NCBI GenBank assembly: GCA_045596385.1
Contig: JAZOCC010000013.1
Location: 18,818-42,817, forward strand
Direction: 5' to 3'
DNA length: 24,000 nucleotides
Source of the DNA: Lachnospiraceae bacterium
Lineage (GTDB): Bacteria > Bacillota > Clostridia > Lachnospirales > Lachnospiraceae
In this document: positions 1,743 to 24,000 of the stretch, piece by piece
Layout: every line of letters begins with the position of its first letter
Numbering within the stretch: the stretch's first letter is position 1
Notes under the pieces: model-generated
Told to the model about the DNA's origin: nothing
The model's database searches: none
What the model saw: only the letters and a program-made list of their open reading frames with translations
Position numbers and translations under genes: made by a program

Positions 1743-1753
1743 GTACTTTCTTC

Positions 1754-3502: not shown

Positions 3503-3619
3503 AAGTTTCTCCTTTCTGACTCTCCAACCAGTTACACGTATCCCCTGTATGGTACGGGTTCCCCGCCACACCGCTATCCTACCACAAAAAACCTCCCAAA
3601 GTACATAGGAGATGCATGG

Positions 3620-3645
3620 AAAAAGGCGCAGGATTTTCCTACGCC
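3620..3645 (-). terminator. Rho-independent terminator of the MoxR-DUF58-transglutaminase operon
   Basis: The minus-strand RNA is GGCGUAGG-AAAAU-CCUGCGCC followed by UUUUU. This is an 8-bp stem with one G-U pair, 14 nt after the stop at 3659. Confidence 0.6.
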
Positions 3646-3658
3646 TCATCTCTGATTT

Positions 3659-6364: not shown

Positions 6365-6375
6365 CACATCCACCT

Positions 6376-8497: not shown

Positions 8498-8577
8498 GCC
8501 GTTACTCCCTTTCTATCTGCTGCTTTTGTCAAAACTGTCACGTTTGCTCAAATCGTTGCATTTATTAAAAATTCACG

Positions 8578-9048: not shown

Positions 9049-9061
9049 ATAAACCCTCTCC

Positions 9062-10012
9062 CTACCTCATCTGCGACGGCTGAGCCACCTGGACAATCTT
9101 TGCCTCCTGCAGATTGCGGAGTAACTGCAGGCGCACCTGGCCCTGATACTCCGGCTTAATCATGTAGTGACAGTAGGCCTCCAATACCACGAAAAAGTCA
9201 TCGGTACGGCCTTCGATTTTGAAATTATTGAAGCCCATCGGCACGTACTTTTCCCAAATATCCTCCGGAGAAACGTAGGTGCAGAAATCCTTGATGGTAT
9301 GTACGTTTTGATGCGCACCGGCACAGAACTTACACTCCCACGGCTTTAACTCCACCTGCTGTTCCGGTGGCAGCGTCATATTCTTTACCATATTCTTCTG
9401 GTTCTCGGAAATGTGGCGATAGTGGGCGCCGCGTCTTGCGCAATTCGGCTCGCAGGCCGCGTTAATCAAAATCTCACATCTGGCCTTATCCGTAATCTTT
9501 TCCAGCTCCTCGAATTGATTGTTCATGTTATAATCCAGCACCACCAAATCGTAGCCCTTTGCCAGCTCGGTATTGACGCCCTCCGCGCCCTTAATCTGCT
9601 TACAGGTGGAGCTGGTAATCTTCATATTCGGGTAATTCTTACGCACATACTCCTCCAACAACGGAGACACCAAAATCACGCCGTTCATGCCGTTGTGGGC
9701 CACCTTCAGACAGAAATTACAATACGGGTCCTGCAAATCGGTCTCGTCCAGCAGCATATTCGTATAAGTAAAACGTACCGGAATGCCCCAGCTGTTCAAC
9801 GACTGCACCACACCGTTGATATAATCCGGGCTGCACTGGTCGCCCCTTGAATTCCGACCGCCGTTCCAAAGAGAGGTCGGAAACTCACCAAAGCAGGAGG
9901 CAATCTTCACACCCTCTCTGAAAAACTCCGGATGCCCTTTTAACATACCTAAAAACAACACATTTAACGGATAATTTCTGCGCAACCCCGGCAGATGAAA
10001 TTTAACTTCCAT
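9062..10012 (-). CDS. Uncharacterised Cys-rich cytoplasmic protein (316 aa); possibly a distant U32-peptidase-like TIM-barrel fold
   Basis: The start was moved to ATG 10012, which has a strong SD (GAGGAGGATTTTATG). The track start at 10111 is the TTG inside the -35 box of the predicted promoter. The block order (VRFTYTN, NGVILVSP...ITSSTC, CEILINAACEPNCARRGAHY) loosely parallels U32 proteins. The functional call is weak. Confidence 0.65.
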   Translation of the reverse strand: MEVKFHLPGLRRNYPLNVLFLGMLKGHPEFFREGVKIASCFGEFPTSLWNGGRNSRGDQCSPDYINGVVQSLNSWGIPVRFTYTNMLLDETDLQDPYCNFCLKVAHNGMNGVILVSPLLEEYVRKNYPNMKITSSTCKQIKGAEGVNTELAKGYDLVVLDYNMNNQFEELEKITDKARCEILINAACEPNCARRGAHYRHISENQKNMVKNMTLPPEQQVELKPWECKFCAGAHQNVHTIKDFCTYVSPEDIWEKYVPMGFNNFKIEGRTDDFFVVLEAYCHYMIKPEYQGQVRLQLLRNLQEAKIVQVAQPSQMR

Positions 10013-10082
10013 AAAATCCTCCTCAAATCTATGATATGGTGCCTTCCGCACACCCACTTTTTTCGCTAATCTCGCATCTTTT

Positions 10083-10111
10083 ATCATACACTTTTTTTGG
10101 CACGATGTCAA
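10083..10111 (-). promoter_or_regulatory. Strong sigma-A type promoter for the 316-aa gene / LMW-PTP (and probably the MoxR operon)
   Basis: On the minus strand: TTGACA (10111..10106), a 17-nt spacer, then TATGAT (10088..10083), about 70 nt upstream of ATG 10012. Confidence 0.55.
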
Positions 10112-10164
10112 TAAAAGTACACGCTCTCACCATTTACGTACATGCTCACTTTGCCTGCACGGAA

Positions 10165-10192
10165 ACAGCCGCCACATTACTGTGACGGCTGT
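10165..10192 (-). terminator. Stem-loop downstream of the esterase gene (weak intrinsic terminator)
   Basis: The minus-strand RNA is ACAGCCGUCAC-aguaau-GUGGCGGCUGU, an 11-bp stem with one G-U pair. It is followed only by UU, so the U-tract is poor. Confidence 0.35.
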
Positions 10193-10236
10193 CCTTCGGC
10201 CCCTCCCGGCCTTTATCGTTATTCTCCTCGGAATAC

Positions 10237-11832
10237 CTATCTTGTGAACCGGGAAATAAACTTCCAAGCGTTCTCGTTGGTATGATGTCTGCACTCATGT
10301 ACCTGCTCGCTGACGCTGGCAAATGCGGTACGGCATACGCCGTCCTCACTGTCAAAGTAATGGATGGTCAGGTCGCTGCCGCGGGAATCGTCATGAACCA
10401 CCTCTACACGGTCACCCTCGATGCCCCAAATCGGCTGTGCCCAGTTGTCCTTATCCGCATAGGATACATCAAACTTCTTCTTTACCTTATTGGTCTCTGC
10501 GCAGTACTGGATGCGCTCCAGTCCGGACTCTGCCTGGAACGGAAGCTCCGGCAAATGGGACTTCTCGCCGCCGGAATAGAAAATCGGCACCGGCACATCG
10601 GTATTAAATCTTCCGCTGTTGGACTGTGCCATCGGGTTGTTCTTTACCGGGAACAGTGCACTGGCCGGAGCCAGGCCCGCAAATGCCTCCGGGTACTCCT
10701 GGTACATATTCCAGGTCTTGCCGCTACCCATGGAGAAGCCTGTTGCGTAGATACGCTTCTCGTCAATATTGTACTTCTTCTTCAGGTCCTCAATCACTTC
10801 CATGACCTCGGTAGCGGTTACGTTCTGGTGATTCTCTAAAGATACGAACAGGAAGCCGTATCTGTGGGCAATCTCATACCAGCCTGCCACAAAGGTTAAG
10901 TACATGGAAGTGTCTCCACCACCGTGGAAGCCCATCATCAGCGGTGCCGGACCCTTGTCGAACAAATCATTGTTGTAATATGCAAAATAGCCTACCGGAT
11001 GGGTCTCAGTGCCCTTAAACTGGCCCATATTGTCCGGAGAGGTCTTAACCACCACGCAGCCTGCCTCCTCGGTCATATTCATAGCCGGGAAATCCGGTTC
11101 GATTTCCATCTTACCGCACCACATCTTAAACTTACGTACAAATGCCGCAAAATCCGCCTTATAGTCAGCCTCGGCCTTAATGAGCAGATTCTCGCAGTTT
11201 GCAAATGCGGCATTGACCTCGTCGGAATTACCTACACTAAGAATACCGATATCGGTACGCTCCACCTGCGGCACCACACTGAGCTTTTCCATGGAACACA
11301 TGGCCGGAGTAATCTCACCCGGTCCCCACAAATACTCACCGTTTAAGGTCTTCAGCAAATTCTTTGCCACGAAGTCTGCAGACGCACCGTAGCTGTAAAT
11401 ATCCGCTCTGAAAATCGCACCGCGGATAAAGAAGCCCTTGAACTCTCTCTTAAAGAAATCATGCTGTTCTACGATACCGTCCTCGTAACGCGGATCCATC
11501 TTCACCTCCGCAATCAAAGAGGAATACAACTCCTCCGTCGCATTGGCCCAACCGCCCTCACAGGTCGGATACACGAAAAGCACGCTACTGTCCACCGCAG
11601 ACGCAATATCCGCCAGACCGCTCTTCTTTGCAAAGGCAATGGCATCCTCCATGCTCTGTCTGTTCTCCTCGAAAACGAGAAGAAGCGGCGCACGGAAGGT
11701 GTAGTTATTCACCTGACCGTCAATCTCCGTTGCCGGCAAATACGCCTTCAAAAAAAACTTCTCATAGGTGTGCTCCCAATACTTTCCACCGTCGGCCATC
11801 TTCGTCACCAACGGACGCTCCATAATACCCAT
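10237..11832 (-). CDS. Alpha/beta-hydrolase esterase (PHB-depolymerase/LpqC-type C-terminal domain) with an uncharacterised ~270-aa N-terminal domain
   Basis: The nucleophile elbow is IYATGFSMGSGKTW (GxSxG), and HGGGDTS is oxyanion-region-like. There is no signal peptide. Strong SD AGGAGGAAGGTTTTATG precedes ATG 11832. Confidence 0.85.
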   Translation of the reverse strand: MGIMERPLVTKMADGGKYWEHTYEKFFLKAYLPATEIDGQVNNYTFRAPLLLVFEENRQSMEDAIAFAKKSGLADIASAVDSSVLFVYPTCEGGWANATEELYSSLIAEVKMDPRYEDGIVEQHDFFKREFKGFFIRGAIFRADIYSYGASADFVAKNLLKTLNGEYLWGPGEITPAMCSMEKLSVVPQVERTDIGILSVGNSDEVNAAFANCENLLIKAEADYKADFAAFVRKFKMWCGKMEIEPDFPAMNMTEEAGCVVVKTSPDNMGQFKGTETHPVGYFAYYNNDLFDKGPAPLMMGFHGGGDTSMYLTFVAGWYEIAHRYGFLFVSLENHQNVTATEVMEVIEDLKKKYNIDEKRIYATGFSMGSGKTWNMYQEYPEAFAGLAPASALFPVKNNPMAQSNSGRFNTDVPVPIFYSGGEKSHLPELPFQAESGLERIQYCAETNKVKKKFDVSYADKDNWAQPIWGIEGDRVEVVHDDSRGSDLTIHYFDSEDGVCRTAFASVSEQVHECRHHTNENAWKFISRFTR

Positions 11833-11902
11833 AAAACCTTCCTCCTAATTGTTCTGAAACTTTACTTGGCAATGCGTATATCCGCAAATGCCTCCGAGGG
11901 AT

Positions 11903-11931
11903 ATTTTACCACAAAATGCGAGCGGATTCAA
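11903..11931 (-). promoter_or_regulatory. Extended -10 promoter for the esterase gene
   Basis: On the minus strand: TTGAAT (11931..11926), a 17-nt spacer ending in TGG, then TAAAAT (11908..11903). Confidence 0.5.
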
Positions 11932-12045
11932 TCACTAATTTGAAATCTAATTTAAGATTTATTTTAATATTTTGCCCTTTTTCACTTTAGGCATTTTTCA
12001 CAAAAAAAGCGGAAAATTTCAGTAGTTTCGACGAAGGGATTTTTC

Positions 12046-12179: not shown

Positions 12180-12266
12180 GCAGAAGGAAGAAACCTATAC
12201 GTTTGCCTTGCATTTTCCGTCCAATGCCCCTATAATAAAGGCAAAGGAATGTGTGCTTCTTTCTGC
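12180..12266. repeat. Nested inverted repeat enclosing promoter P2
   Basis: The outer arms are GCAGAAGGAAG (12180..12190) and CTTCTTTCTGC (12256..12266): 11 bp with one G-T position. The inner arms are TTTGCCTT (12202..12209) and AAGGCAAA (12238..12245), 8 bp and perfect. Confidence 0.6.
12208..12236 (+). promoter_or_regulatory. Candidate proximal promoter (P2) of the Rpn-like gene
   Basis: TTGCAT (12208..12213), a 17-nt spacer, then TATAAT (12231..12236), about 55 nt upstream of ATG 12291. Confidence 0.5.
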
Positions 12267-12290
12267 AACACCAAAGGGAAAGGAGTAAAT

Positions 12291-13280
12291 ATGACAGAAA
12301 ACACATACATTTCCGATGCATTAGAAGGAAATAACAGCAAAGACCGTTTAGATACGGAAGTCAAGAAAGTACTAAGCGATAAAACGGTATTAGCTTGGAT
12401 TTTAAAGTACACCACTGCCGAGTTTAAGCGATACTCTATCGAAAGGATAAAAACGTGTATCGAAGGCACTCCGGAAGTAGGCACTCATCCATTGAATCCA
12501 AAGTCCAAACACACCGGGAAATCTCAAAAAAGCAGTAAGCATGGTCAGTCTCCGGAGGCCATCACCGGAAGCGATACCGTAGATAAAGTACCGGGCGAAG
12601 GACATGTATACTATGACATTCGCTTTTACGCGGTTACGCCTACCAAGGATCGCATCAAGCTGATACTGAATGTAGAGGCACAAAAGGCTCTCTCATTAAA
12701 GTATGACCTTGTTACAAGGGGGATTTTTTACGCTGCACGCATGATTTCTGCCCAAAAGGGTACGGAATTTACAAAAAGCAATTATGATGATATAAAGAAA
12801 GTATATTCTATCTGGATTTGCATAGAAGTTCCCAGAAACATGGAATATACCATAACATCCTATCGGATGGACAAGAAAGTCCTTTTCGGCAATCCCAGGA
12901 GACGCTTCCGCTATGACTTGATGGAAGTTGTTATGATATGTCTCGGTAGAGAAGAAACGGCTAACACCGGAACTAAACTACACGGTATGTTAAGTACCTT
13001 GCTTTCACGAAAGCTGACACCCAAAGAAAAAGAAAAATGTTTAGCTGCAGAATATGATTTTGAAACATCAACAGAACTGGAAGGAGAATTGAGACAGATG
13101 TGTAATTATAGCGATTTGATAGAAGAAAGAGGCATTGAAAAAGGTATCAAACAAGGCATTGAAAAAGGCAAACTGACCATCCTGATTGCCCTGGTTCAAG
13201 ACGGCCTGATTTCTATAGAGGAGGCCGCAAAGCGGGCCGGTATGACCGTTGAAGACCTGCAGGCTCTTATGGCAAATTAA
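12291..13280 (+). CDS. Rpn-family / PD-(D/E)XK nuclease 'putative transposase' (TIGR01784/PDDEXK_2-like)
   Basis: The start was moved to ATG 12291, with SD AGGAG at 12281. The core YYDIRFYAV...ILNVEAQK...RGIFYAARMIS...VYSIWICIE fits the D..E.QK nuclease pattern of this family. The C-terminal IEKGIKQGIEKGK...EEAAKRAGMTVEDLQALM tail is typical of it. Confidence 0.75.
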   Translation: MTENTYISDALEGNNSKDRLDTEVKKVLSDKTVLAWILKYTTAEFKRYSIERIKTCIEGTPEVGTHPLNPKSKHTGKSQKSSKHGQSPEAITGSDTVDKVPGEGHVYYDIRFYAVTPTKDRIKLILNVEAQKALSLKYDLVTRGIFYAARMISAQKGTEFTKSNYDDIKKVYSIWICIEVPRNMEYTITSYRMDKKVLFGNPRRRFRYDLMEVVMICLGREETANTGTKLHGMLSTLLSRKLTPKEKEKCLAAEYDFETSTELEGELRQMCNYSDLIEERGIEKGIKQGIEKGKLTILIALVQDGLISIEEAAKRAGMTVEDLQALMAN

Positions 13281-13603: not shown

Positions 13604-14149
13604 TTATTTCAAATCAAATTTGTATGATTGCTTACCAATTTGTATGTTCCCATTCTTCAAATTGGTATTAAGATACTCTAACGCATACGGTTGAAGATTA
13701 TACGCAAACGTGGTGAAATAACTACTTATAGAAGATGCTCTATATATTATATATCTACTCTCAAGTGCCGCTTTTCTTCCATCATTTATCTCTATTCCAC
13801 CAGTAGTATGAAAACATTCATTGTTTTCATCATAAAAAGCCTCTATTAAAAGTTGCTTTTCATCTGAACTCATATTATCTTTCATATATTTTAATGCAAT
13901 TCTTTTTTCATTGTAAATCCTTCTTTTCAAACATCTTATTAGCCACTCAACTATTCGGAACAAATAATATGAACCAAGAATTATCATTCCAATGCTGATA
14001 TACGTTTGATATGAATTTCTAAATTCATACACATTAATTTTTACTGCCCACTTTTCAGGAAGCAAAGTAAGAACTAAAGAAGCAATAAATACAATTGCCA
14101 AAAGTTCTTTTAGCTTAAGCTTATCAACGATAGACTTCAAAATATCCAA
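13604..14149 (-). CDS. SieB-like (superinfection exclusion protein B family, PF14163-like) small membrane protein
   Basis: 181 aa with a TTG start at 14149, 6 nt after a strong SD (GAGGAGGAGAATAAGTTG) and 14 nt after the hsdR stop. It has two N-terminal TM helices (LLAIVFIASLVLTLL, ISIGMIILGSYYLFRIV). The soluble C-domain carries MSSDEKQLLIEAFYDENN...NDGRKAALESRYIIY...LQPYALEYL, which matches my recollection of the SieB family pattern. Confidence 0.6.
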   Translation of the reverse strand: MDILKSIVDKLKLKELLAIVFIASLVLTLLPEKWAVKINVYEFRNSYQTYISIGMIILGSYYLFRIVEWLIRCLKRRIYNEKRIALKYMKDNMSSDEKQLLIEAFYDENNECFHTTGGIEINDGRKAALESRYIIYRASSISSYFTTFAYNLQPYALEYLNTNLKNGNIQIGKQSYKFDLK

Positions 14150-14163: not shown

Positions 14164-17100
14164 CTACGCAATCTCCTCAGAATTACGCTTTATCTCTGCC
14201 ACTACTTCCATGATACGTTTGGCAGTTCCCATATCATCTTTAAACAGTGTTGTTATACTGCCTACAGAGCGGAACGGTTCCTCCATCAACACCTTATTAT
14301 CGTCAATATTGCCGTTTGCAACAATATAATCAACGATAAGATTTACAAAACGAATCTGATTTACATTCAGTCTCTGTTCTGCCAGGAACTCACTGAATGC
14401 CTCATTTACCGCTGCCCTGTCTACACCGACAATTCTACGGACCAAGCGACCGATTGGAGTGTCTCCGTATTCCTTCTCGTAATCAGATTTTGTACCCAAA
14501 TCTTGCCACAATATCTTTTCAAGAGCCTTCAAATCCGCCGCAGTCAGTTTCTTATTATTTCGAAGTTTATACACACACAGACTGCTACCATGTTCCTTCA
14601 AATAAAACTCAACCTTCTTCCGATAATCCTTAAGGTCGCTGGAATCATAAATCGGCGCTCCCTCTTTCATATCGATAATGGTATCTGTAAAGTTTTTATA
14701 ATAAATCGGACGTACTAACTTATCCAAATACTGCAACAAATCACGTAATGCAATTCTTACCGTATCCAGTTCCATAATCGTTACATCTTCCCAGAATTCC
14801 GGCAACTGTACACGCTCTATAATTTCTCTCTGTTTCTCGACCTGTGGAATCGAATACTTTGCGGACAATCGTTCTGCCGTAAAAATAACAATATTAATCG
14901 GCGTCTGTACATTCTTACTTTGCAATAGTCCTAGTTTGATGCTGTACATAAGATAGTCAAATCTTCTGGCGAGTTCATCTTCCTTTTTCGGCTTAATCAA
15001 CGGAGATACATGTTCTTTTATCTCAGAAACCTCAACGGTTTCAAGACTGTTCCAGTTGGACAATTCGCGGAACTTTTCCACATATCTTAAGTGCCTTTTT
15101 ACCATGAAACTGTTATTATCCAGTTCAACTACCGCTTTATGTTGACCAGACACCAATTCCATTCTATAGGTAATATACGGCTTATCTTTCGCATATACAG
15201 GTGCCTGTAACTCCCTGCAGATCAACGTCTTCGTGTTATAAATCTTCTCACAAAGAGTCTCCTGAATTCCGGTTTCACTCCCGTTAGTATTCACTCTGAA
15301 ATACTCAAAGTTATTACAGAAGTCAAATATCAGGAAACGCTCCTTATCGATCCCGGCTCCCAATAAATCAGGACAAAGTCTGGTTCCTCGTCCGATCATC
15401 TGCCAAAACTTTGCATAACTGCGCACCTTTTTAAAGAACACCAGATTCAAAATCTCCGGTATATCGATACCGGTATCCAACATATCTACCGACACAGCAA
15501 TCTGCGGCATTTTCTCTTTCGTGCTAAAATCGTCAATTAAAGTATCACAATATTTTATACTATAATCAATCTGCTTAATAAAGTCTCCACCACATTCCGG
15601 GAAGAGTACATTAAAGCGTTTCACAATCTCTTTGGCATGCAAACTATTCTTCGCAAAAATAATCGTTTTGCCAAGCTTGTCTCCACCTTCAATCTTCAAA
15701 CCTTTTTCCATTAATTCTTTCAAAACTTTATCAATCGTGTCTTGATTAAATAGCCACGTATTAATCGCAGAACTGGAAATATCCTCATCCACCATATCAT
15801 CGTCGGCAAAAGTCTCTTCAAACTCTTCCTTCTCTTCCTCAGACAACTCATCATAGTGAATGCCATCTTCCATAATCTTTGTCTTATATTCCAGCGTAGA
15901 ATAATTTACAAGATACCCCTCTTCTACGGCCTTTTCCAGCTCATAAGCAAAAGTCGGAACACCACGTTCCAGGTCAAACACACCGTAAGTATTCTTGTCA
16001 ATTTCATTCTTTGGAGTCGCGGTCATTCCCAACAACATAGCATCAAAATACTCGAAGATTTCCTGATACTTCCGATAAATCGAACGATGAACTTCATCAC
16101 AGATGATAAGGTCAAAATGTCCCGGAGAAAACAATCTTTCTCCATACTTATTCTTCTTTTCATCGATTGCATTCATCATGGTCGGATAGGTTGAAAAAAT
16201 CATTCTCGAACTTTCCGGGTCATCCTTACTGTCACATAAATTACAGCAAGATAAATCTTCTAACAAGCTTGTATAACTGTTCTTCGCCTGTTTTACAAGT
16301 GCAGTTCTATCCGCCAAAAACAGAATGTTCTTTACATAGTTGTGCCGTCTTAATACGTCCACAATGCTGATACTAACTCTGGTCTTACCGGAACCGGTTG
16401 CTTGAACAATCAGCATCTTTCTATGTTTCTTCGCAATCGCATCACACACCGCCGTTATTGCCTCTTTCTGATACGGTCTGTTAGTGATTATATCGCTGAT
16501 TTCAATACGGTCCAAAGGAATCCGCTGTTCTCTTCGGTCTACTTCTAACTGTAACTCTTCCTGCGTAAAGAAGCCAGACACTTGTCTTCTCGGGTAGCCG
16601 CAAGCATCATTCGTATAATAAAACTCAAAACCGTTAGTGGTAAAAATAAGCGGTCTACGCCCATACTTATTTTGCAAACAATCTGCGTACAACTTCGCCT
16701 GCTGACTACCTACAATCGCATCTACAGACGCCTTTTTCGCTTCCACCACAGCCAAAGGCAAATTATCTTTGCCCCATAAAACATAATCCACATATCCCGT
16801 ACCGGTAGGATTCGGCATACCGGTAACCGGCTCCTCAATGGTACAATTTCTCCCTATGACCCAACCGGCTTCCTGCAACTCCACATCAATATATCTTGCG
16901 CGAGTCTCTGCCTCGCTCATCGTATCCACATGGAATTCTCGTGTCTGCGTATGTACCTTACGTTCTTCCGCCATCTGCTTACGCAGTTCTTCATTCTCCT
17001 TAAGAATCTGTTCCAGTTTCACATCTTTACTGCTTAAACTATCATACAGCTTTTTAAGCTCCTCTGCTTTTACACGTTTCTCATCACCGGATACAAGAAG

Positions 17101-17514
17101 TGTCTCGTCAAAGGTTCTCTCCTCATATTCCTCAGAATAACAAAAATCAATCCAATCACAGAACTCAAACAAATCACGTAACGAAATAATTGCCTCATCA
17201 CGCTTGATATTGCTATTCGTATGTACTGCAACATTCCCCAAATGAATCGTATACTTAAGCATAGGAAACAAACGCGGCTCAATAATGTCGCGGAAGGATT
17301 TTTCATGAATCAAACTCGATATATTATCCTGATAAGGAAGCTGCAAATCTGCATCATACGAAAAAACAAATCTTACCGCCAACTCTAATGCTCTTCTTGC
17401 CAAAATTGCACAAGTTGCCGGAGAAATCGCAAGACTTTTCTCTGCTTCAACCGCCTGAGCAGCAAATCCTTTATATTCTTTTTTCGCTAACAGGTAATCA
17501 AAATTTGTTTCCAA
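14164..17514 (-). CDS. hsdR: Type I restriction enzyme R subunit (N-terminal DUF4145-like domain + coiled coil, PD-(D/E)xK nuclease, SF2 helicase, EcoEI-R-type C-terminal domain)
   Basis: The nuclease motif is GYVDYVLWG...VVEAKK. The helicase motifs are I QATGSGKT, II ICDEVHRS, III GMTATP and VI QMIGRGTR. The TTG start at 17514 is 7 nt after AAGGAGGG, and the N-terminus METNFDYL is typical for this HsdR class. Confidence 0.95.
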   Translation of the reverse strand: METNFDYLLAKKEYKGFAAQAVEAEKSLAISPATCAILARRALELAVRFVFSYDADLQLPYQDNISSLIHEKSFRDIIEPRLFPMLKYTIHLGNVAVHTNSNIKRDEAIISLRDLFEFCDWIDFCYSEEYEERTFDETLLVSGDEKRVKAEELKKLYDSLSSKDVKLEQILKENEELRKQMAEERKVHTQTREFHVDTMSEAETRARYIDVELQEAGWVIGRNCTIEEPVTGMPNPTGTGYVDYVLWGKDNLPLAVVEAKKASVDAIVGSQQAKLYADCLQNKYGRRPLIFTTNGFEFYYTNDACGYPRRQVSGFFTQEELQLEVDRREQRIPLDRIEISDIITNRPYQKEAITAVCDAIAKKHRKMLIVQATGSGKTRVSISIVDVLRRHNYVKNILFLADRTALVKQAKNSYTSLLEDLSCCNLCDSKDDPESSRMIFSTYPTMMNAIDEKKNKYGERLFSPGHFDLIICDEVHRSIYRKYQEIFEYFDAMLLGMTATPKNEIDKNTYGVFDLERGVPTFAYELEKAVEEGYLVNYSTLEYKTKIMEDGIHYDELSEEEKEEFEETFADDDMVDEDISSSAINTWLFNQDTIDKVLKELMEKGLKIEGGDKLGKTIIFAKNSLHAKEIVKRFNVLFPECGGDFIKQIDYSIKYCDTLIDDFSTKEKMPQIAVSVDMLDTGIDIPEILNLVFFKKVRSYAKFWQMIGRGTRLCPDLLGAGIDKERFLIFDFCNNFEYFRVNTNGSETGIQETLCEKIYNTKTLICRELQAPVYAKDKPYITYRMELVSGQHKAVVELDNNSFMVKRHLRYVEKFRELSNWNSLETVEVSEIKEHVSPLIKPKKEDELARRFDYLMYSIKLGLLQSKNVQTPINIVIFTAERLSAKYSIPQVEKQREIIERVQLPEFWEDVTIMELDTVRIALRDLLQYLDKLVRPIYYKNFTDTIIDMKEGAPIYDSSDLKDYRKKVEFYLKEHGSSLCVYKLRNNKKLTAADLKALEKILWQDLGTKSDYEKEYGDTPIGRLVRRIVGVDRAAVNEAFSEFLAEQRLNVNQIRFVNLIVDYIVANGNIDDNKVLMEEPFRSVGSITTLFKDDMGTAKRIMEVVAEIKRNSEEIA

Positions 17515-18592
17515 ATCTGTTCCCTCCTTCTTTATATATCCTCTGGCTTATGATAAGTAAAAATTTCAATTTGTCGACTTGTTCAACGAAGTTTGCAAAC
17601 TGCTCTTGTTGTTCAACTGGTGGCACAGGAATCCTAATATTCTCAACGATAGACTTAGATATTTCCTTGAATGTTGCACCACGTCCAAGAGCATTCAAGT
17701 ATTCTGTATTTAAGAGAAGAAGCGTGTATAAATATCGCGGAACAATCTCCTCATTGCAGATAATGTTCTTGAACCCCTGATTACAATAAAAAGTTGAACC
17801 TGCAATTGCAACCTTGCCAATAGGGGCTCTTGAAGACAAAATCACAGTATTAGCAGGCATTTCCTGCAAAGAGCAACTATCTACACCCGCTTTTGTCAAC
17901 TTGCGAACAGAATCATAAATATAACCGCTATCCGCATCAAGTTCAGCAGGAGTTATCCATTTGTATTCACCATCCCAATATTCCTCGATATTAGTTTTCG
18001 GTGTGGCGCCGCTCACAACCTTACCTATTTCAAAAATAGATTTCCAATCACTCTGAGAATAAGATAAATCAAATTCCCCAAACATCTCCACAAATCGGGA
18101 TTTGATGAGATTGTCCAGTTCTTCCAACTCTATCTTGCGCTTCTTCTTTATCTCAACGACCTTATTCAATTTATCAACTATACTTATTTGTTCCTCTAAT
18201 GTTCTTTTCGGTATCATCATCTTGCGCATAGCCGCTTGTGTCAACTTCTGTCTAGTTGCTCCATTAACCATTCCATCCACATTATAAAACATCAGAGAAT
18301 AACATAAATAATCTACATCTATTCCTTCTTTGGGTTTTAATACATGCGCGTGATTATTTACCCAGCACTTTCCTGAAACACGATAGGCAATAGGTCTTTC
18401 CTTGGAACCAAAGTTTCCACCATCCTCTGCCAATAAAACCAACTCATCATCAAATAAATAATCTGCCACATGGTCCTGAATTCCATTGGCACCATAATAT
18501 GGATATGGTCCCTCTTCTCTGTCCGATGCAGTAATCGGAACTCTCATGGAATCTAATATCTCACAGCAATCTTCTATGTATATTTTATCCAT
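17498..18592 (-). CDS. hsdS: Type I R-M specificity subunit, copy A (TRD_X - central conserved region - TRD_Y; aberrant C-terminal tail)
   Basis: It has two target-recognition domains separated by ELDNLIKSRFVEMFG. The distal conserved region stops after QFANFVEQVDKLKF and is replaced by LLIISQRIYKEGGNRFGNKF. It overlaps the hsdR start by 17 nt. The start is ATG 18592. Confidence 0.9.
   Translation of the reverse strand: MDKIYIEDCCEILDSMRVPITASDREEGPYPYYGANGIQDHVADYLFDDELVLLAEDGGNFGSKERPIAYRVSGKCWVNNHAHVLKPKEGIDVDYLCYSLMFYNVDGMVNGATRQKLTQAAMRKMMIPKRTLEEQISIVDKLNKVVEIKKKRKIELEELDNLIKSRFVEMFGEFDLSYSQSDWKSIFEIGKVVSGATPKTNIEEYWDGEYKWITPAELDADSGYIYDSVRKLTKAGVDSCSLQEMPANTVILSSRAPIGKVAIAGSTFYCNQGFKNIICNEEIVPRYLYTLLLLNTEYLNALGRGATFKEISKSIVENIRIPVPPVEQQEQFANFVEQVDKLKFLLIISQRIYKEGGNRFGNKF
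17564..17583. repeat. Distal-conserved-region repeat D, copy A (20 nt, identical to 19745..19764, direct)
   Basis: TTTCAATTTGTCGACTTGTT encodes (E)QVDKLK on the minus strand. Homology to copy B ends abruptly on the 3' (low-coordinate) side. Confidence 0.9.
18078..18106. repeat. Central-conserved-region repeat C, copy A (29 nt, identical to 20234..20262, direct)
   Basis: CCAAACATCTCCACAAATCGGGATTTGAT encodes IKSRFVEMFG on the minus strand. It contains the internal palindrome CAAATC-GG-GATTTG. Confidence 0.9.
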
Positions 18593-18597
18593 TTTAT

Positions 18598-18620
18598 ATC
18601 ATCTCCACAAATCTGAATTT
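18598..18620. repeat. hsdS 5'-junction repeat J, copy A (23 nt, identical to 20794..20816, direct)
   Basis: ATCATCTCCACAAATCTGAATTT supplies the SD (GGAG) of hsdS_A and begins 4 nt after the recombinase stop. Confidence 0.9.
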
Positions 18621-18624
18621 GCGG

Positions 18625-19596
18625 TTATCCGATGAATTTCCTATGAGAGTTCTTTACATTGCTCTGATTAACCATAGCATAATGCATGGTCGTATCAATT
18701 TGTTGATGTCCCAATAGGCGTTGTACTTGCTCTATCGGCATTCCTTTGTCTATTGCTTTTGTTGCCATGGAACGCCTGAATTTATGTGGATGTACTTTCT
18801 CAATATTGAGTCGACGTCCAAGATTTCTTAACCGTATCTCAACTCCACTTATCTTTAATCGTTCACTGGGCTTGTCCAGTGTCACAAATAAAGCTTCATT
18901 TCTATCTGTTCTGCTCTTCAAATATTCTTGCAGATGAATTTTAGCCCTTGCATCAAAGTATACTCGTCGTTCCTTATTTCCCTTACCATACACAACGCAT
19001 TCCCGTTCCTCAAAATTAATATCAGCCTTATTTAGATTCACCAATTCACCAACTCGAATTCCAGCAGAATACAACAAATCAATGATTGCCAAATCCCTTA
19101 TGTTTTTACAGTTATCGCGCATAACTTCAATGTTTTCGTCAGAAAAAGTTTCCTTCACACGGGTACCGGTTCTTACCTTATGAATTCGCCGTATTGGACT
19201 TTTCAATATATGATCTTCATCTTCCAACCAAGAAAAGAAACTGGACAAATTCCGTCGAATATTGTCAATCGTTACCCGCCCGCAATTATTCTTTACCTGA
19301 TACTGCGTTAAGTACTCTCGTAAGTCCTCTGTCGTGATTTGCCTTACCGGTGTCTTTATATCCAAAAACATATTCTGAATCGTGCTCCGATAGTACTCTA
19401 TGGTACGTTCAGAACACCCCTCAATCCGCTTGGCAGCAACAAACATATCAAGATACTCTTTATTATCAATCTCCCTTGTAATTTCCGGGTCCGTCCTCTG
19501 CAAATATTTTAGCAAACATTCCTGTAACCTTCTCATTTGCTGGACATCAAGACACTCCGACATATCGTTCAATATTCTACAAATCGCATTCTCCAT
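18625..19596 (-). CDS. Tyrosine site-specific recombinase (XerC/D-like, shufflon-type integrase)
   Basis: The N-terminal SAM-like domain is followed by a catalytic domain with AGIRVGEL (Arg), GKGNKERRV (Lys), HPHKFRRSMAT (HxxR) and LLGHQQIDTTMHY (His, Tyr nucleophile). Confidence 0.9.
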   Translation of the reverse strand: MENAICRILNDMSECLDVQQMRRLQECLLKYLQRTDPEITREIDNKEYLDMFVAAKRIEGCSERTIEYYRSTIQNMFLDIKTPVRQITTEDLREYLTQYQVKNNCGRVTIDNIRRNLSSFFSWLEDEDHILKSPIRRIHKVRTGTRVKETFSDENIEVMRDNCKNIRDLAIIDLLYSAGIRVGELVNLNKADINFEERECVVYGKGNKERRVYFDARAKIHLQEYLKSRTDRNEALFVTLDKPSERLKISGVEIRLRNLGRRLNIEKVHPHKFRRSMATKAIDKGMPIEQVQRLLGHQQIDTTMHYAMVNQSNVKNSHRKFIG

Positions 19597-19633
19597 TTTG
19601 GTATACTCCTTTTTTCACCCAGTATACCAAAAT
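19595..19633. promoter_or_regulatory. 13-bp perfect inverted repeat spanning the recombinase start codon, SD and predicted -10
   Basis: ATTTTGGTATACT (19595..19607) and AGTATACCAAAAT (19621..19633) are exact reverse complements, separated by a 13-nt spacer that contains most of the SD (AAGGAG on the coding strand). Confidence 0.7.
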
Positions 19634-19648
19634 CAAATATTTCTGCAA
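19621..19648 (-). promoter_or_regulatory. Candidate internal extended -10 promoter for the recombinase gene
   Basis: On the minus strand: TTGCAG (19648..19643), a 16-nt spacer ending in TGG, then TATACT (19626..19621). It lies in the 66-nt gap between the hsdS_B stop and the recombinase ATG. Confidence 0.45.
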
Positions 19649-19662
19649 GAACATCCTTTTAC

Positions 19663-20790
19663 TTATCCGAAGTACTTCTGCATAAGCGAATCCATTAGTT
19701 GCTGCGTTTCATCCAACGATTTCTGTACTTCAACTTTCAATTTGTCGACTTGTTTCGCAAATTGTTCAAACCCCCCTTGAAGCTCTATTGGTGGATATGG
19801 AAATGGATATGCTTTTAATGCAGGCATTTCAATACCGCTTTGTCCCGCTGTTCGCTGTGATAAACCATCCAAATAATTAAATAAACAATCTTGCTTCAAG
19901 AAATATCGTATAAACTCTTTATTTCCCATCTTTGGTGTTGCCTTCATAAGTGCAACATTATAAGCACCTTCAATGCCTTTAAGAATCTGGAAAATTGGGG
20001 GGCCATATCTTCCAATCATAATATCATCTGCATCACAAAATCTTTTTGCCATGGATTTTGGAATATATGTAACATAGTTATCTGTTTTATAATCTCTAAT
20101 CTGAATCAGACGAACATTATCTTCCGTTAGCTTATATTCAAAATATTTCTTATCAGGTTGAGCTCCACCAGTAAATTCTATGACATCATCAACCGTCAAC
20201 ATTGGAAACCCTTTTTCATTCGCATTAGGAGTTCCAAACATCTCCACAAATCGGGATTTGATAAGTTGGTCCAATTCAAACAATTCTTTCCGCCGTAATA
20301 CAAGTATTTCGCTACCCTTCTGCAGCTGATATGCAATTTTCTTTTGCACATCCATTTTAGGCACTTCTATCTCTATATTTTCAACAATTGACTTAGAAAT
20401 CTCCTTAAATGTAGCCCCTCTCCCTAAAGAATTTAAATAATCCTTCTTACACTTTAGAAACCAATAGAGATACTCATTATATATTTCCTCTGTACAAATC
20501 AAATTCTTGAATCCTTGGTTACAATACATCTCACAACCAGCAATTGCTACTTTCCCTATAGGCGCTCTTGATGATAAAATCACCGTTCCTTTCGGAAATG
20601 AATTTAAGCCTGTTTTCTCAACTGCAAGTTCAGTAATCTTTCTCGCAGAGTCTTCTAAAATATATGAATCTTCGGTTAATTCAGCTGGTGTAATCCATTT
20701 GACATCACCATCCCAAAATTCTTCCACATTAGTCTTGGGCGTACTTCCTGAAACAACATTACATATATCACCTAACCGTCTTTTTGCCAT
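19663..20790 (-). CDS. hsdS: Type I R-M specificity subunit, copy B (TRD_Y' - central conserved region - TRD_Z; intact C-terminal helix)
   Basis: It has two TRDs separated by ELDQLIKSRFVEMFG, and the distal conserved region is complete (FEQFAKQVDKLKVEVQKSLDETQQLMDSLMQKYFG). ATG 20790 lies 24 nt after the hsdM stop. Confidence 0.9.
   Translation of the reverse strand: MAKRRLGDICNVVSGSTPKTNVEEFWDGDVKWITPAELTEDSYILEDSARKITELAVEKTGLNSFPKGTVILSSRAPIGKVAIAGCEMYCNQGFKNLICTEEIYNEYLYWFLKCKKDYLNSLGRGATFKEISKSIVENIEIEVPKMDVQKKIAYQLQKGSEILVLRRKELFELDQLIKSRFVEMFGTPNANEKGFPMLTVDDVIEFTGGAQPDKKYFEYKLTEDNVRLIQIRDYKTDNYVTYIPKSMAKRFCDADDIMIGRYGPPIFQILKGIEGAYNVALMKATPKMGNKEFIRYFLKQDCLFNYLDGLSQRTAGQSGIEMPALKAYPFPYPPIELQGGFEQFAKQVDKLKVEVQKSLDETQQLMDSLMQKYFG
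19745..19764. repeat. Distal-conserved-region repeat D, copy B
   Basis: TTTCAATTTGTCGACTTGTT is identical to 17564..17583 and in the same orientation. Confidence 0.9.
20234..20262. repeat. Central-conserved-region repeat C, copy B
   Basis: Identical 29-mer in the same orientation as 18078..18106. Confidence 0.9.
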
Positions 20791-20793
20791 TTC

Positions 20794-20816
20794 ATCATCT
20801 CCACAAATCTGAATTT
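20794..20816. repeat. hsdS 5'-junction repeat J, copy B
   Basis: Identical 23-mer that supplies the SD of hsdS_B and overlaps the hsdM stop codon. Confidence 0.9.
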
Positions 20817-22278
20817 ATTTAAGTCCAAGCAAACTCTTAAGCTCCGAAAACTCCTTTTGAATCTCTGCCTCAATCTGCTCTATTTTACCGATAATTACTT
20901 CTGTAGACTCGTACTCAACCTGTTCATATACCACTTCTTTATACTTATTAATGGACAGGTCATAATCATTGGCAATAATCTCATCCACTGGCACAAAGAA
21001 GCTTTGCTCTGTTCTTGCTCTATCTGTCTCGGTTTCCAAGTTATTAAAACGCTTGATAATGTCCGGAATATCGCAGTCAGAAATCTCCTGTCGCTTATCG
21101 TCCAAACTATATCCATCAGCCTTCATATCATAAAACCATACCTTGTCCGTTCCGCCGGAACCGGTCTTCGTAAAGATTAAGATTGCCGTAGATACACCTG
21201 CATACGGCTTAAACACACCACTCGGCATAGATATTACTGCATCCAACTTATTGTTATTTATAATCTCTGTTCGAATCTGCTTATGTGCATTGCTACTACC
21301 AAACAACACTCCATCCGGAACAATTACAGCCGCTCTTCCACCCTTTTTCAAAATACGCAAAAACAGTGCCAAGAAAAGCAACTCTGTCTTTTTCGTCTTG
21401 GTTACTTTCAACAAATCGGCTGATACTGCTTCATAGTCCAAGCTCCCTTTAAACGGCGGATTAGCCAATACAAGAGTATACTTCTCCGAATCCGTATTCT
21501 GCTCAGACAGACTGTCTCTATAGGAAATATTCGGATTATCAACACCGTGTAACATCATATTCATGGCACCGATACGAAGCATCGTTCTATCCATATCATT
21601 TCCGTAAAACATTTCGTTATTGAAATGCTCTCTCAATTTAGCATTTAAGAACATGTCCGCATGATTATCCCTTAAATACTGTTGCGCCTCAATTAGGAAA
21701 CCTGCACTTCCCATTGCCGGGTCAATAATAATGTCATCCGGCTTCGGTTTTACCAAATCCACCATCATTCTAATGATATGACGTGGTGTTCTAAACTGAC
21801 CATTTGTACCTGCTGTAGCAACTTTCGAAAGCAAATACTCATACAAATCCCCCTTAGAGTCTGCATCCCCCAATTCTAGCTTGTCAATACCGTCAACAAT
21901 CTTAGTCAACATTGCTGCAGTCGGAATCTTAAAGATTGCATCTCCCATGTATCTGGCATATGCAGAATCTCCATCCTGATGCAAATTCTTTATAAACGGA
22001 AACACTTCATTTGCCACAAGCTTATACATCTCATCAGCAGAACCCAGATTCTTAAACTTGCTCCACTTATACTTCTGATAATCCCCTGCAAACATCGACT
22101 CAAACGGCACCCCGAGGAAATTAGCCTCATTCTCTTTTACGGTATCCATATCGTCCAACTGCTTTATAAACAGCAAATATGTAAACTGCTCAATAACATC
22201 CAGAGGATTGGTTATTCCTCCGGTCCAAAAGGTTTCCCATATCTTGTCTATCTTATTACGTAATTCGCCTGTAATCAT
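20815..22278 (-). CDS. hsdM: Type I R-M N6-adenine DNA methyltransferase subunit
   Basis: It has an HsdM N-terminal domain, AdoMet motif I IIDPAMGSAGFL and catalytic motif IV LANPPFKGS. Length is 487 aa and the start is ATG 22278. Confidence 0.95.
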   Translation of the reverse strand: MITGELRNKIDKIWETFWTGGITNPLDVIEQFTYLLFIKQLDDMDTVKENEANFLGVPFESMFAGDYQKYKWSKFKNLGSADEMYKLVANEVFPFIKNLHQDGDSAYARYMGDAIFKIPTAAMLTKIVDGIDKLELGDADSKGDLYEYLLSKVATAGTNGQFRTPRHIIRMMVDLVKPKPDDIIIDPAMGSAGFLIEAQQYLRDNHADMFLNAKLREHFNNEMFYGNDMDRTMLRIGAMNMMLHGVDNPNISYRDSLSEQNTDSEKYTLVLANPPFKGSLDYEAVSADLLKVTKTKKTELLFLALFLRILKKGGRAAVIVPDGVLFGSSNAHKQIRTEIINNNKLDAVISMPSGVFKPYAGVSTAILIFTKTGSGGTDKVWFYDMKADGYSLDDKRQEISDCDIPDIIKRFNNLETETDRARTEQSFFVPVDEIIANDYDLSINKYKEVVYEQVEYESTEVIIGKIEQIEAEIQKEFSELKSLLGLK

Positions 22279-22349
22279 GTTGTAGTTCCTTTCTTTGCAT
22301 TCATAGTGAGATTCATCAAAAGTTCCTCTTGTTTTTAATCTTCATTCAA

Positions 22350-23027
22350 CTACTCGGTTTGTAATGTACCATACCGGACACAAATCTCATAATCAAATTT
22401 TACTTCCTTTCCTTTATCAAAACGAACAGTCACATATTTCCCCTCTCGTCTTATTATTGTACCGCAACCACGCTTCCTGTGTCTAACACGACCACCAATT
22501 TCATTCAATCTATCAGCGTTCTTACTATCCTTGCAAGTTCCAATCCTTGCCCTAATCCATGTCTTATCCAATTCTTTCATTACATAATATCTAAGATATT
22601 TATCCTCGAGATAATATTTTCCATCTTTTATAGAAACATAGATTGGCTTATCCATTTTCTTATGTTCCTCATAGTACGCTCGCAATTCCGCCACCTTTTG
22701 AGAACTCGGAGGTTGCTTCAAAAACTTTTCCGGAACCACAATTTCTTTAATCTTAATAGTACGCACACCGACAAATTCTTCTGCCTCTTCCTTTTTCAGT
22801 TCTTGAATAACAGCCTTTGTTCGTTCAATTGTAGACACACCTTCTCTTCTGTTCTCCGCCTCTTCTTCCCCATAAAATCCACAATGAGCCGAGCCTCCAC
22901 ATCTAGACATATAAGCACAGGAACCGTCTTTATGATAATGTACACACCATTTTCTATGTCTTCGTTCGTCTTTCTTATGTACATATGTAATACCGTTTGT
23001 CCCTTCAACAAATCCGTGTTCTCTCAT
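22350..23027 (-). CDS. Uncharacterised three-module protein: N-terminal Cys/His cluster, ParB/Srx-like middle region, C-terminal Tudor/DUF3553-like domain
   Basis: 225 aa, starting at ATG 23027 with SD GAGGAG. The N-terminus is CVHYHKDGSCAYMSRCGGSAHC. The middle, IKIKEIVVPEKF...PIYVSIKDGKYYLEDKYLRYYVMKEL...IRARI, resembles the ParB N-domain layout but lacks a clear GxxR arginine motif. The C-terminus, RVRHRKRGCGTIIRREGKYVTVRFDKGKEVKF, resembles the PcrA/UvrD C-terminal Tudor-type motif. All domain calls are by eye. Confidence 0.6.
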   Translation of the reverse strand: MREHGFVEGTNGITYVHKKDERRHRKWCVHYHKDGSCAYMSRCGGSAHCGFYGEEEAENRREGVSTIERTKAVIQELKKEEAEEFVGVRTIKIKEIVVPEKFLKQPPSSQKVAELRAYYEEHKKMDKPIYVSIKDGKYYLEDKYLRYYVMKELDKTWIRARIGTCKDSKNADRLNEIGGRVRHRKRGCGTIIRREGKYVTVRFDKGKEVKFDYEICVRYGTLQTE

Positions 23028-23082
23028 AATTTCTCCTCATTTTATAAAACCACATCACATCAAAAAGTCTACCTGCTATTCT

Positions 23083-23583
23083 TTACTTTTCCTCTATTAT
23101 ATCAAGCAAGTCCTCATAAAATTCTTTTTTTAAACGTGCATTTTCTAAATACACTAAAGAAATAACGAGCACAACAACTAATGGCCCAAACTTTCCCGTA
23201 CTATTTATTTCCAGATTTTTTTTCATGAAGAAATCATCTATAGAAAGTAATGCAATATAGAGCGGAATCAAAATAATCTTTACTGCCTCCAACTCTCCTT
23301 TTGCATATCTCCTTTTCTGTTCTAGCCAATGAACAAAATTTTCTTTTTCACAAGAATTCTGTACTGGGAAAACCTCTTTTATATGATTTTTCCACTCCAA
23401 ATAGGTATCACAAAACTTATACTTATTTTCTTTCTTATTTATTTTCCTTCTGAACCAACGACGAATATTCAATATCCATCCACGATTTGCCGTTTTTCGG
23501 TTTCCATAATCCTTCCCTACATAGTGATATGTTTTCAACTCATATTTTTCATTAATATTATACGCTTGAAACTCATTCTTCAT
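23083..23583 (-). CDS. Uncharacterised small membrane protein (basic N-terminal domain + two C-terminal TM helices)
   Basis: The track start 23598 is GTG; I prefer ATG 23583, preceded by AAGTGAGG. The TM segments are AVKIILIPLYIALLSI and FGPLVVVLVISLVYL. No family was recognised. It is the first gene after the island promoter. Confidence 0.6.
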   Translation of the reverse strand: MKNEFQAYNINEKYELKTYHYVGKDYGNRKTANRGWILNIRRWFRRKINKKENKYKFCDTYLEWKNHIKEVFPVQNSCEKENFVHWLEQKRRYAKGELEAVKIILIPLYIALLSIDDFFMKKNLEINSTGKFGPLVVVLVISLVYLENARLKKEFYEDLLDIIEEK

Positions 23584-23626
23584 ATAATTTTGCCTCACTT
23601 TCTAACTCTTTCACCTTATCTCTTTA

Positions 23627-23655
23627 ATTATACTTCTTTTTCTAACACATTTCAA
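23627..23655 (-). promoter_or_regulatory. Near-consensus sigma-A promoter of the island operon
   Basis: On the minus strand: TTGAAA (23655..23650), a 17-nt spacer, then TATAAT (23632..23627), about 45 nt upstream of ATG 23583. I found no comparably good promoter upstream of the 225-aa gene or hsdM. Confidence 0.55.
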
Positions 23656-23736: not shown

Positions 23737-24000
23737 CTACACATCCTTTGCCCAAAGCCAAAATATCAAACCGCCTATCATGATTGCCCCCAGCAACTCA
23801 TTGACTATCGTTCCCACAAGAATCGCAATGATATAAAACACCCAGAACATTCCTGCAGATTCCGGGTCTGGACTGCTCCTTCGGCCTCCGCGACTTCCGT
23901 AGTTCTGTTCATCACAATCGCATCCGTAACCGGTACAACTTCTTCCGTGCTCTCCGTCATGTGGAATCATATTTCTTCTGTCATGTCCATGCTCGCTCAT
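23737..24000 (-). CDS. Small hypothetical membrane protein with a His/Cys/Gly-rich N-terminus (possibly 5'-truncated by the window edge)
   Basis: The 87-aa ORF has its ATG on the last three bases of the window, so the true start may lie outside. The C-terminal half has two hydrophobic helices (MFWVFYIIAILVGTIV, LLGAIMIGGLIFWLW). GC is back to core-like levels. Confidence 0.45.
   Translation of the reverse strand: MSEHGHDRRNMIPHDGEHGRSCTGYGCDCDEQNYGSRGGRRSSPDPESAGMFWVFYIIAILVGTIVNELLGAIMIGGLIFWLWAKDV

Follow-up and report, generated by a model that had tools for sequence, protein, structure and literature searches.

What does the protein encoded directly upstream of a type I restriction-modification (R-M) gene cluster do, and does it belong to that cluster? 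This question is raised by a 24,000-nucleotide stretch of DNA from a Lachnospiraceae bacterium (assembly GCA_045596385.1, contig JAZOCC010000013.1, positions 18,818 to 42,817; hereafter ‘the window’, whose own numbering is used below), in which an open reading frame (ORF) for a 225-amino-acid protein precedes hsdM on the minus strand. The first-pass annotation of this DNA had proposed that the protein, here called the target, consists of three parts and is tied to hsdM. Our analysis largely upheld the three-part architecture, through profiles, structure matches and conservation in alignments, and spoke against the tie to hsdM. We tentatively propose that the target belongs, as a stand-alone protein, to a large modular family without a name that is found in the accessory regions (defence, counter-defence and transfer-associated) of mobile elements of gut Clostridia, and that it is an accessory factor docking on RNA polymerase (RNAP) or UvrB; it is probably not a dedicated R-M subunit. 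The gene and its parts are as follows, with model confidence given as the predicted local distance difference test score (pLDDT).

22350..23027, minus strand: target ORF from the ORF list, 225 amino acids with an ATG start, complete with Cys4 module, ParB/sulfiredoxin (ParB/Srx) domain and Tudor domain
23033..23038, minus strand: strong Shine-Dalgarno sequence GAGGAG, 5 nt 5' of the target ATG, read directly from the sequence
22854..23027, minus strand: basic four-cysteine (Cys4) module, residues 1-58, RRHRK-W-C28-x8-C37-x5-C43-x5-C49-x2-Y52
22779..22853, minus strand: variable charged linker, residues 59-83, with no conservation in alignments and pLDDT below 50
22530..22778, minus strand: minimal ParB/sulfiredoxin-fold domain, residues 84-166, conserved motif DKP...LEDKYLRYYVAK..G, with K143 for the canonical Gly and R146 kept
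22362..22508, minus strand: UvrD/PcrA-type Tudor domain, residues 174-222, G178-x-x-V-x-H183-x-x-x-G187-x-G189...F203

The three modules of the target

The ORF itself was read as it had been described: the ATG start and the GAGGAG sequence 5 nt upstream of it were both seen on the minus strand, and the peptides quoted earlier were all found in the translation, namely IKIKEIVVPEKF (residues 91-102), PIYVSIKDGKYYLEDKYLRYYVMKEL (128-153), IRARI (158-162) and GCGTIIRREGKYVTVRFDKGKEVKF (187-211). Scans of the single protein against Pfam, NCBIfam, PHROG and PADLOC gave no significant model. The sub-threshold matches were to PcrA_UvrD_tudor (E 0.07), a ParB-like PHROG (E 0.065) and the C-terminal end of the UvrD equivalog (E 0.009). 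In PADLOC-DB 2.0, 0 families matched the target at E ≤ 1e-3, and no similarity to HsdM, HsdS, HsdR or a known type I accessory protein was found in Pfam, NCBIfam or PADLOC.

We compared a profile of the middle domain, made from 74 sequences, with the PDB. The matches were Noc (E 2.8e-7), Myxococcus ParB (4e-7), SbnI (2e-5), sulfiredoxin (3e-5) and Spo0J (7e-5). A Foldseek search with the AlphaFold2 (AF2) model placed sulfiredoxin first (6ky4; E 7e-6, template modelling (TM) score normalised to the database structure 0.77), followed by Noc, ParB, KorB, PadC and SbnI; these matches cover the N-domain only, over about 80-96 aligned columns. The structure matches of the middle domain in BFVD were ParB/Srx proteins only. 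The Pfam family ParB_N (PF02195) was matched by 16 of 147 relatives, with a best E of 1.7e-6, and the target alone stayed below threshold. The pLDDT was 82-91 over residues 80-170 and, by 10-residue block, about 76-91 over residues 79-225. Thus the ParB/sulfiredoxin-like middle segment suggested earlier has independent evidence from the profile and from Foldseek and, as judged by profile and model together, the middle domain, with its alpha/beta fold, is a member of the ParB/Srx superfamily.

The earlier description had also held that the canonical GxxR arginine finger is missing. The alignments do not agree with this. In the HMMER alignments to Noc and Myxococcus ParB, L-E-D-K-Y-L-R-Y-Y of the target stands opposite i-a-G-E-R-R-W-R; R146 falls on the final R of GERR and K143 on the Gly, giving the motif D-K-x-x-R instead of (D)G-x-x-R, with only the Gly replaced by Lys. 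R146 is invariant in 16 close homologues and is the consensus residue in wider alignments, and the other invariant charged residues of the pocket are D126, K127, E141, D142, K143 and K151. What the target has in common with the superfamily (PF02195) is the fold, the significant profile matches and the superfamily arginine R146. It differs in that the domain is a minimal one of sulfiredoxin size and in having no helix-turn-helix (HTH) domain, no dimerisation domain and no ParA partner. From the box GERRxR, with which ParB binds cytidine triphosphate (CTP), the Gly and two of the three Arg are lost, the target reading K-Y-L-R-Y-Y. In the AF2 model the domain ends about 20 residues past this motif, and a helix and the Tudor domain come next; no HTH family of Pfam or NCBIfam matched the target, and a dimerisation domain and a Box III region are not present.

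The C-terminal domain had been likened to the Tudor/DUF3553 domain of PcrA and UvrD, and this likeness was borne out. A profile of 69 sequences matched the C-terminal domain of Thermus UvrD in the PDB (7egt_B, E 1.5e-7), followed by 6yi2 (6e-6), 7egs_B (9e-6) and PcrA (5dma, 0.012), and Foldseek matched the domain to 7egt_B with a TM score, normalised to the database structure, of 0.81 and a root-mean-square deviation of 1.9 A, in keeping with a five-stranded Tudor/SH3-like barrel. The best matches by profile and structure are therefore UvrD C-terminal domains that were solved with the RNAP beta lobe (7egs) or with UvrB (7egt). PcrA_UvrD_tudor (PF21196) was matched by 27 of the 147 relatives (best E 6e-6), and two relatives each matched Tudor_1_RapA, DUF3553 and CarD_TRCF_RID. 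Of these four families, all but DUF3553 are Tudor families that interact with RNAP. The signature G-x-x-V-x-H-x-x-[FYW]-G-x-G-T-[VI] is shared with the PcrA/UvrD Tudor domain (PF21196; 5DMA, 7EGS, 7EGT and 6YI2). H183, which is at least 90% conserved, and position 186, which is Y or F in most relatives and Arg in the target, stand opposite the H and the F of RHAKFGEG in the UvrD alignments. These two positions probably correspond to PcrA H681 and W684. In PcrA, the substitutions H681A, W684A, K712A and L714A lower RNAP binding (PMC5397179). The target shares the His that is needed for RNAP binding in PcrA. In PcrA and UvrD, however, the Tudor domain sits on a superfamily 1 (SF1) helicase, whereas in the target it follows a ParB/Srx domain in a protein of 225 amino acids and the aromatic residue has become Arg. 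CarD/CdnL and the RID of Mfd follow the same logic as the one proposed for the target, in that a small Tudor domain which attaches to the beta subunit of RNAP is joined to a nucleic-acid-binding part. The target differs from them in its domain order, in its unrelated partner domains and in its sequence type, which is that of UvrD/PcrA and not of CarD.

The N-terminal module has no Pfam match, either in the target or in its relatives. Across 95 diverse N-terminal modules that we aligned, R23, C28, C37, C43 and C49 never vary, and conservation is 90% or higher at G9, D20, G45 and Y52. The cysteine cluster pointed out earlier is thus a conserved module, although its spacing had been given as x5/x6/x6, one residue too many per spacer; the target reads C28-x-H30-x-H32-x4-C37-x5-C43-x5-C49. 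The histidines vary across the wider family, where CxY is as common as CxH and AHC is sometimes AQC. Because they are not conserved, the four cysteines are the most likely ligand set. They form no CxxC pairs and are preceded by the basic sequence RRHRK. The module probably binds a metal, either as a Zn or as an Fe-S site. Resemblances to CCCH zinc fingers (C-x8-C-x5-C-x3-H) and to WhiB-type Fe-S sites were considered and are not claimed here, since both differ from the module in spacing and ligands and neither was backed by a search. The core of the module reached a pLDDT of 73-80 when AF2 was run on the 95-sequence alignment, and residues 1-78 were below 50 in the full-protein model.

A modular family and its genomic surroundings

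A word-index search yielded 17 homologues besides the window protein, with identities of 37-61%; all are unnamed and come from metagenomes or metagenome-assembled genomes. An exhaustive profile search gave 931 cluster representatives at E ≤ 1e-3, 228 at ≤ 1e-10 and 46 at ≤ 1e-30. For the top 165 representatives, we counted the domain architectures (N, Cys4; P, ParB/Srx; T, Tudor).

N-P-T: 52 of 165
N-T: 26 of 165
N-P: 26 of 165
P alone: 19 of 165
P-T: 14 of 165
P repeats: 13 of 165
N alone: 9 of 165
T alone: 6 of 165

The three modules recombine freely among these representatives. The Cys4 module is found without a ParB domain in 26+9 of them. Among longer relatives there is an SNF2 helicase with ParB and Tudor domains at its N-terminus, and the modules are also fused to SF1 helicases, a tyrosine integrase, HTH arrays with a cold-shock domain, and DUF6339. 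The family had no match in IMG/VR or among the phages of INPHARED and one partial match only among the plasmids of PLSDB; a prophage structural-module context was thus not supported. Pattern scans of metagenomes and GTDB returned 5 loci only. A second word-index search, based on a broad alignment, brought up mainly another ParB_N family, that of the Bacillaceae ‘plasmid stabilization protein’, and not more three-module members, and was set aside. In the literature that we searched, no description of the Cys4-ParB/Srx-Tudor architecture was found. The first-pass annotation had not recognised the architecture as a described R-M component, and in agreement with this the family is unnamed in every library searched. 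Both of the recognisable domains are of known kinds; what is new is their combination with the Cys4 module, the D-K-x-x-R pocket and a family for which no model exists.

If the target were tied to hsdM, then its homologues should be found beside hsdM as well. We examined 14 non-redundant loci that carry full-length homologues (L numbers below) and found hsdM adjacent at one of them. At this locus, L012, the homologue is 59% identical to the target and is preceded by a RepB_C gene and followed by hsdM and hsdS. The HsdM protein, however, is only 23% identical to that of the window. When every neighbour in the window was compared with the homologue loci by tblastn, the weak hsdM match in L012 was the only one, with none at the other 13 loci, and no neighbour is conserved at all homologue loci. 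The association with hsdM suggested earlier comes down to adjacency at 1 of 14 loci, with a non-orthologous hsdM. The surroundings of the homologues contain the following genes instead (positions are those of the respective locus).

Defence genes, 6 of 14 loci: L002 ZacABC; L013 ZacA; L015 HKD-SNF2 and type IIG R-M; L019 MkoA-like helicase; L008 GmrSD and methyltransferase; L012 type I R-M
Transfer, anti-restriction and replication genes, 4 of 14 loci: L005 ArdC-N, relaxase and MobC; L021 relaxase, MobC and YodL; L001 RadC, DUF932, YqaJ, Mor and HTH_17; L012 RepB_C
Proteins like the C-terminal domain of the RNAP alpha subunit (alpha-CTD), 6 of 14 loci: L002 (1012-1852), L004 (3693-4805), L008 (4667-5035), L009 (60-449), L011 (1322-1576) and L021 (6052-6895)
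ADP-ribose hydrolases (PARG, Macro, ADP-ribosylglycohydrolase), 5 of 14 loci: L004 (7642-9048), L008 (5738-6832), L009 (451-1542), L013 (4994-7905) and L020 (8773-10269)

Judged by these contexts, the family goes with defence islands of Clostridia and with the variable accessory and conflict regions of their conjugative or mobilisable elements, and not with hsdM. They also accord with the earlier remark that ParB-like proteins recur in defence contexts, since homologues were found in defence and counter-defence islands. The presence of ADP-ribose-removing enzymes near family members suggests a counter-defence gene set. L013 also holds a protein with a GreA/GreB domain and a sigma70-region-4 protein.

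Two further observations were made at these and related loci. The alpha-CTD-like gene occurs twice in an overlapping pair with an AsnC-type HTH gene, a link to transcription that is unexplained. In L007 (5904-6979) and L010 (7176-8252), DUF6339 is fused to a ParB/Srx domain of the target's family; this gene adjoins hsdS, an hsdM fragment, a HindI-like hsdR and three ORFs without a family match, a gene set that may represent an uncharacterised system.

The gene, its transcript and the island

In the window, a run of minus-strand genes comprises, in order, ORF171, the target, hsdM, hsdS, an Xer-type recombinase, a second hsdS, hsdR and a SieB-like gene. The features of this run, assigned by NCBIfam and Pfam matches where a gene family is named, are listed below in the direction of transcription.

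23627..23655, minus strand: best promoter-like site of the region, TTGAAA-17-TATAAT, 11/12, upstream of ORF171 (consensus match only)
23083..23598, minus strand: ORF171, 171 amino acids, probable membrane protein with predicted hydrophobic segments, upstream neighbour of the target
22279..22349, minus strand: spacer of 71 nt between the target and hsdM, scanned for promoter and terminator matches
14164..22278, minus strand: complete type I R-M cluster downstream of the target
20815-22278, minus strand: hsdM
19663-20790, minus strand: hsdS
18625-19596, minus strand: Xer-type tyrosine recombinase
17498-18592, minus strand: second hsdS
14164-17514, minus strand: hsdR, EcoAI/EcoEI-family
13604-14149, minus strand: SieB-family gene (superinfection exclusion protein B; Pfam E 2e-19), directly downstream of hsdR

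As had been reported from the first reading, the 71-nt gap has no promoter-like sequence; our scan of 22279-22349 found neither a promoter-like nor a terminator-like match. It is plausible from these signals that the target is co-transcribed with hsdM in the window. The site at 23655-23627 is a possible start of an ORF171-target-hsdM transcript, as judged by its match to the consensus. A 10/12 promoter-like match also lies inside the 3' part of the target ORF (22485-22456, minus strand), and such matches occur in the region at chance frequency, with 12 found versus 11.3 expected. An imperfect 19-nt inverted repeat, 14943-14961 / 22965-22983, was judged to be a chance match.

The GC content is about 38% from about 12 kb to the end of the window, versus about 50% for positions 1-12000. 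Because of this difference between the low-GC block and the 50% GC core, we consider that the target lies in a horizontally acquired island. The SieB-family gene may be a second defence gene of the island. No tRNA gene was found in the window, nor any integrase besides the Xer-type recombinase associated with hsdS, and an Rfam scan of the window found no RNA.

Several other features of the window were recorded. Upstream of the target, an 87-amino-acid ORF (23737-24000, minus strand) has a Gly/Cys/His-rich part followed by a hydrophobic tail, and the strongest promoter-like site (23655-23627) falls between it and ORF171. Neither ORF171 nor this ORF has a family match or was found beside any homologue of the target. 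The two full-length hsdS genes around the Xer-type recombinase (17498-20816) have the layout of phase-variable hsdS shufflons; they lie on the same strand and the repeats that they share are direct, not inverted. A 23-nt unit occurs four times in this region (18081, 18598, 20237 and 20794), and segments of 57-91 nt are 74-84% identical. The hsdR product combines an N-terminal DUF4145, an HSDR_N nuclease with a helicase core, and an EcoEI_R_C tail, in this order. Near the GC boundary at about 12000 lies a PD-(D/E)XK_2 transposase-like ORF (12249-13280, plus strand), with a sub-threshold match (E 5e-4). The 50% GC core contains an ordinary operon of a MoxR AAA_3 ATPase, DUF58 and a transglutaminase-like protein (3659-8497, minus strand), and a long minus-strand ORF of at least 536 codons, from 1 to about 1700, runs off the start of the window and, being cut there, is absent from the ORF list; Rfam found no RNA in this part.

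What the protein may do

How, then, should the position of the target beside hsdM be explained? It could serve the type I R-M system specifically, as an accessory protein or regulator co-transcribed with hsdM that, for example, controls the expression of hsdM, hsdS and hsdR while the system becomes established in a new host, or targets the enzyme to DNA. The common strand, the 71-nt gap and the lack of a terminator-like site in it agree with this explanation. So does the homologue in L012, which is likewise directly upstream of hsdM-hsdS; given the low identity of the two HsdM proteins, this juxtaposition arose or persisted independently. The distant ParB-domain relative that is fused to DUF6339 beside type I R-M genes in L007 and L010 points the same way. 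However, hsdM, hsdS and hsdR are not adjacent at 13 of the 14 loci, including four of the five closest homologues (53-61% identity), and neither an HTH nor any other known operator-binding domain is present in the target. The same hotspots commonly carry R-M genes as cargo, and two adjacencies in 15 are close to the background of defence islands by our own estimate, which is not a computed value. We therefore regard a dedicated R-M role as improbable. A canonical CTP-dependent DNA clamp of the ParB type for partition or silencing, as in ParB, Noc, KorB and HerB, is favoured by the middle domain, whose profile matched the CTP-binding N-domains of Noc and ParB best, but it is contradicted by the architecture and seems to us most improbable. 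The domain is only about 83 residues long and leads to the Tudor domain with no Box III-like region ahead of it, neither an HTH nor a C-terminal dimerisation domain is present, the GERRxR box has become K-Y-L-R-Y-Y, and no parA-like gene was seen nearby in the window.

We also considered the possibility that the target works on the side of defence, as a small sensor or effector, or as an adaptor for neighbouring helicase and nuclease systems. Its Tudor domain would then detect, or ride on, RNAP that transcribes invader DNA, and its ParB/Srx domain would be a nickase regulated by nucleoside triphosphate (NTP). The proximity of homologues to ZacABC, HKD-SNF2 with type IIG R-M, an MkoA-like SF1 helicase, GmrSD and type I R-M fits this idea, as do the fusions of family modules to SNF2 and SF1 helicases. 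In addition, Tudor domains precede the SNF2 helicases of BREX-related systems (PMC12839542), and nuclease or NTPase activity has been described for the ParB/Srx domains of GmrS, Osa and ParB-methylase fusions (PMC5512222). However, no PADLOC model matches the target, its partners vary, so that no single system has it as a constant part, and many loci carry ArdC, RadC, ADP-ribose hydrolases or a relaxase, which belong to counter-defence and transfer, instead. A defence function is thus conceivable, but we think it doubtful.

The proposal of a docking accessory factor of mobile elements has points against it as well. The ParB/Srx pocket is unlike that of every characterised member, which makes nucleotide binding putative. 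Docking on RNAP or UvrB would rest on the equivalence of H183, and of Y/F186 in relatives; the W684-equivalent position is Arg in the target itself, and no residue clearly matches K712. A Foldseek search of the PDB with the N-module model gave no match, and both its ligand and its role are guesses. The assignment to mobile elements rests on neighbouring genes in metagenomic contigs, the phage and plasmid databases being nearly empty of the family. Finally, family members have come to lie beside hsdM twice independently, next to genes that are not orthologous, and this could point to a genuine connection with DNA methylation.

According to the tentative proposal that we prefer, the Tudor domain would dock the target on the RNAP beta lobe or on UvrB, and the basic Cys4 module would bind nucleic acid. 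The charged pocket of the ParB/Srx domain (D126, K127, E141, D142, K143, R146 and K151) would bind a nucleotide, possibly with NTPase or DNA-nicking activity; for other ParB/Srx domains outside partition, nucleotide binding or hydrolysis and DNA nicking have been reported (PMC5512222). Because the N-T architecture is common, the docking and binding pair of Cys4 and Tudor modules may be the core of the family, with ParB/Srx as an optional enzymatic or regulatory insert. The target would act where the transcription or repair machinery of the host meets DNA, to the benefit of the mobile element, and may modulate the transcription of the element, its cargo or host genes after entry. Its position beside the R-M cluster would reflect shared residence in a cargo hotspot, and not membership in the R-M enzyme.

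The nearest functional analogue that we found is HerB (YfjB), a ParB-like protein of the F plasmid leading region that reprograms host transcription (preprint PMC13370423); the similarity would be one of logic, not of family. HerB, which occurs chiefly in Proteobacteria, is a dimeric protein of 652 amino acids that binds sites on the chromosome; besides its CTP-binding domain (Boxes I-III) and an HTH, it has two novel domains at the C-terminus (PMC13370423). Like HerB, the target is a ParB-domain protein of mobile elements outside partition, plausibly aimed at host expression early after transfer, a function shown for HerB only. Unlike HerB, it lacks the extra domains and would reach the transcription machinery through its Tudor domain instead of by binding DNA sites. 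Osa of pSa and the DdrB-like ParB domains of polyvalent proteins serve plasmids and phages in inter-element conflict and are thought to be NTP-regulated DNases (PMC5512222). They share with the target family stand-alone or fused ParB/Srx domains and neighbourhoods with ArdC, RadC and YodL. They differ in that a Tudor or Cys4 module has not been described for them (the word ‘Tudor’ has 0 occurrences in PMC5512222), and DdrB-like domains are mostly phage virion proteins, whereas the target family has no phage matches.

A further-reaching version of this idea, which we offer as a speculation more likely wrong than right, is that a new four-cysteine metal module and a ParB/Srx nucleotide-binding module are brought to the host RNAP by a UvrD-type Tudor domain. 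The target would be the founding example of a family widespread in mobile elements of Firmicutes, which would let conjugative or mobilisable elements reprogramme transcription, or transcription-coupled repair, as they enter a host, and the neighbours that resemble alpha-CTD, GreA/B and sigma region 4 would form one transcription-takeover toolkit with it. By analogy, the target would then be the protein-docking counterpart of HerB, which reprograms the host by binding DNA sites.

For annotation, these results carry a warning that position alone is no ground for calling the target a type I R-M subunit. Hundreds of hypothetical proteins, represented by the 931 clusters, can now be described by domain. 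If our proposal is true, then a small factor that reaches the host RNAP, or UvrB, via the same Tudor domain as UvrD and PcrA, bringing along a nucleotide-binding domain of ParB/Srx type and a new metal-binding module, would give mobile elements of gut Clostridia a further means of influencing transcription in the host, one not described before, and the chemistry of ParB/Srx domains would extend beyond CTP clamps, nucleases and sulfiredoxins.

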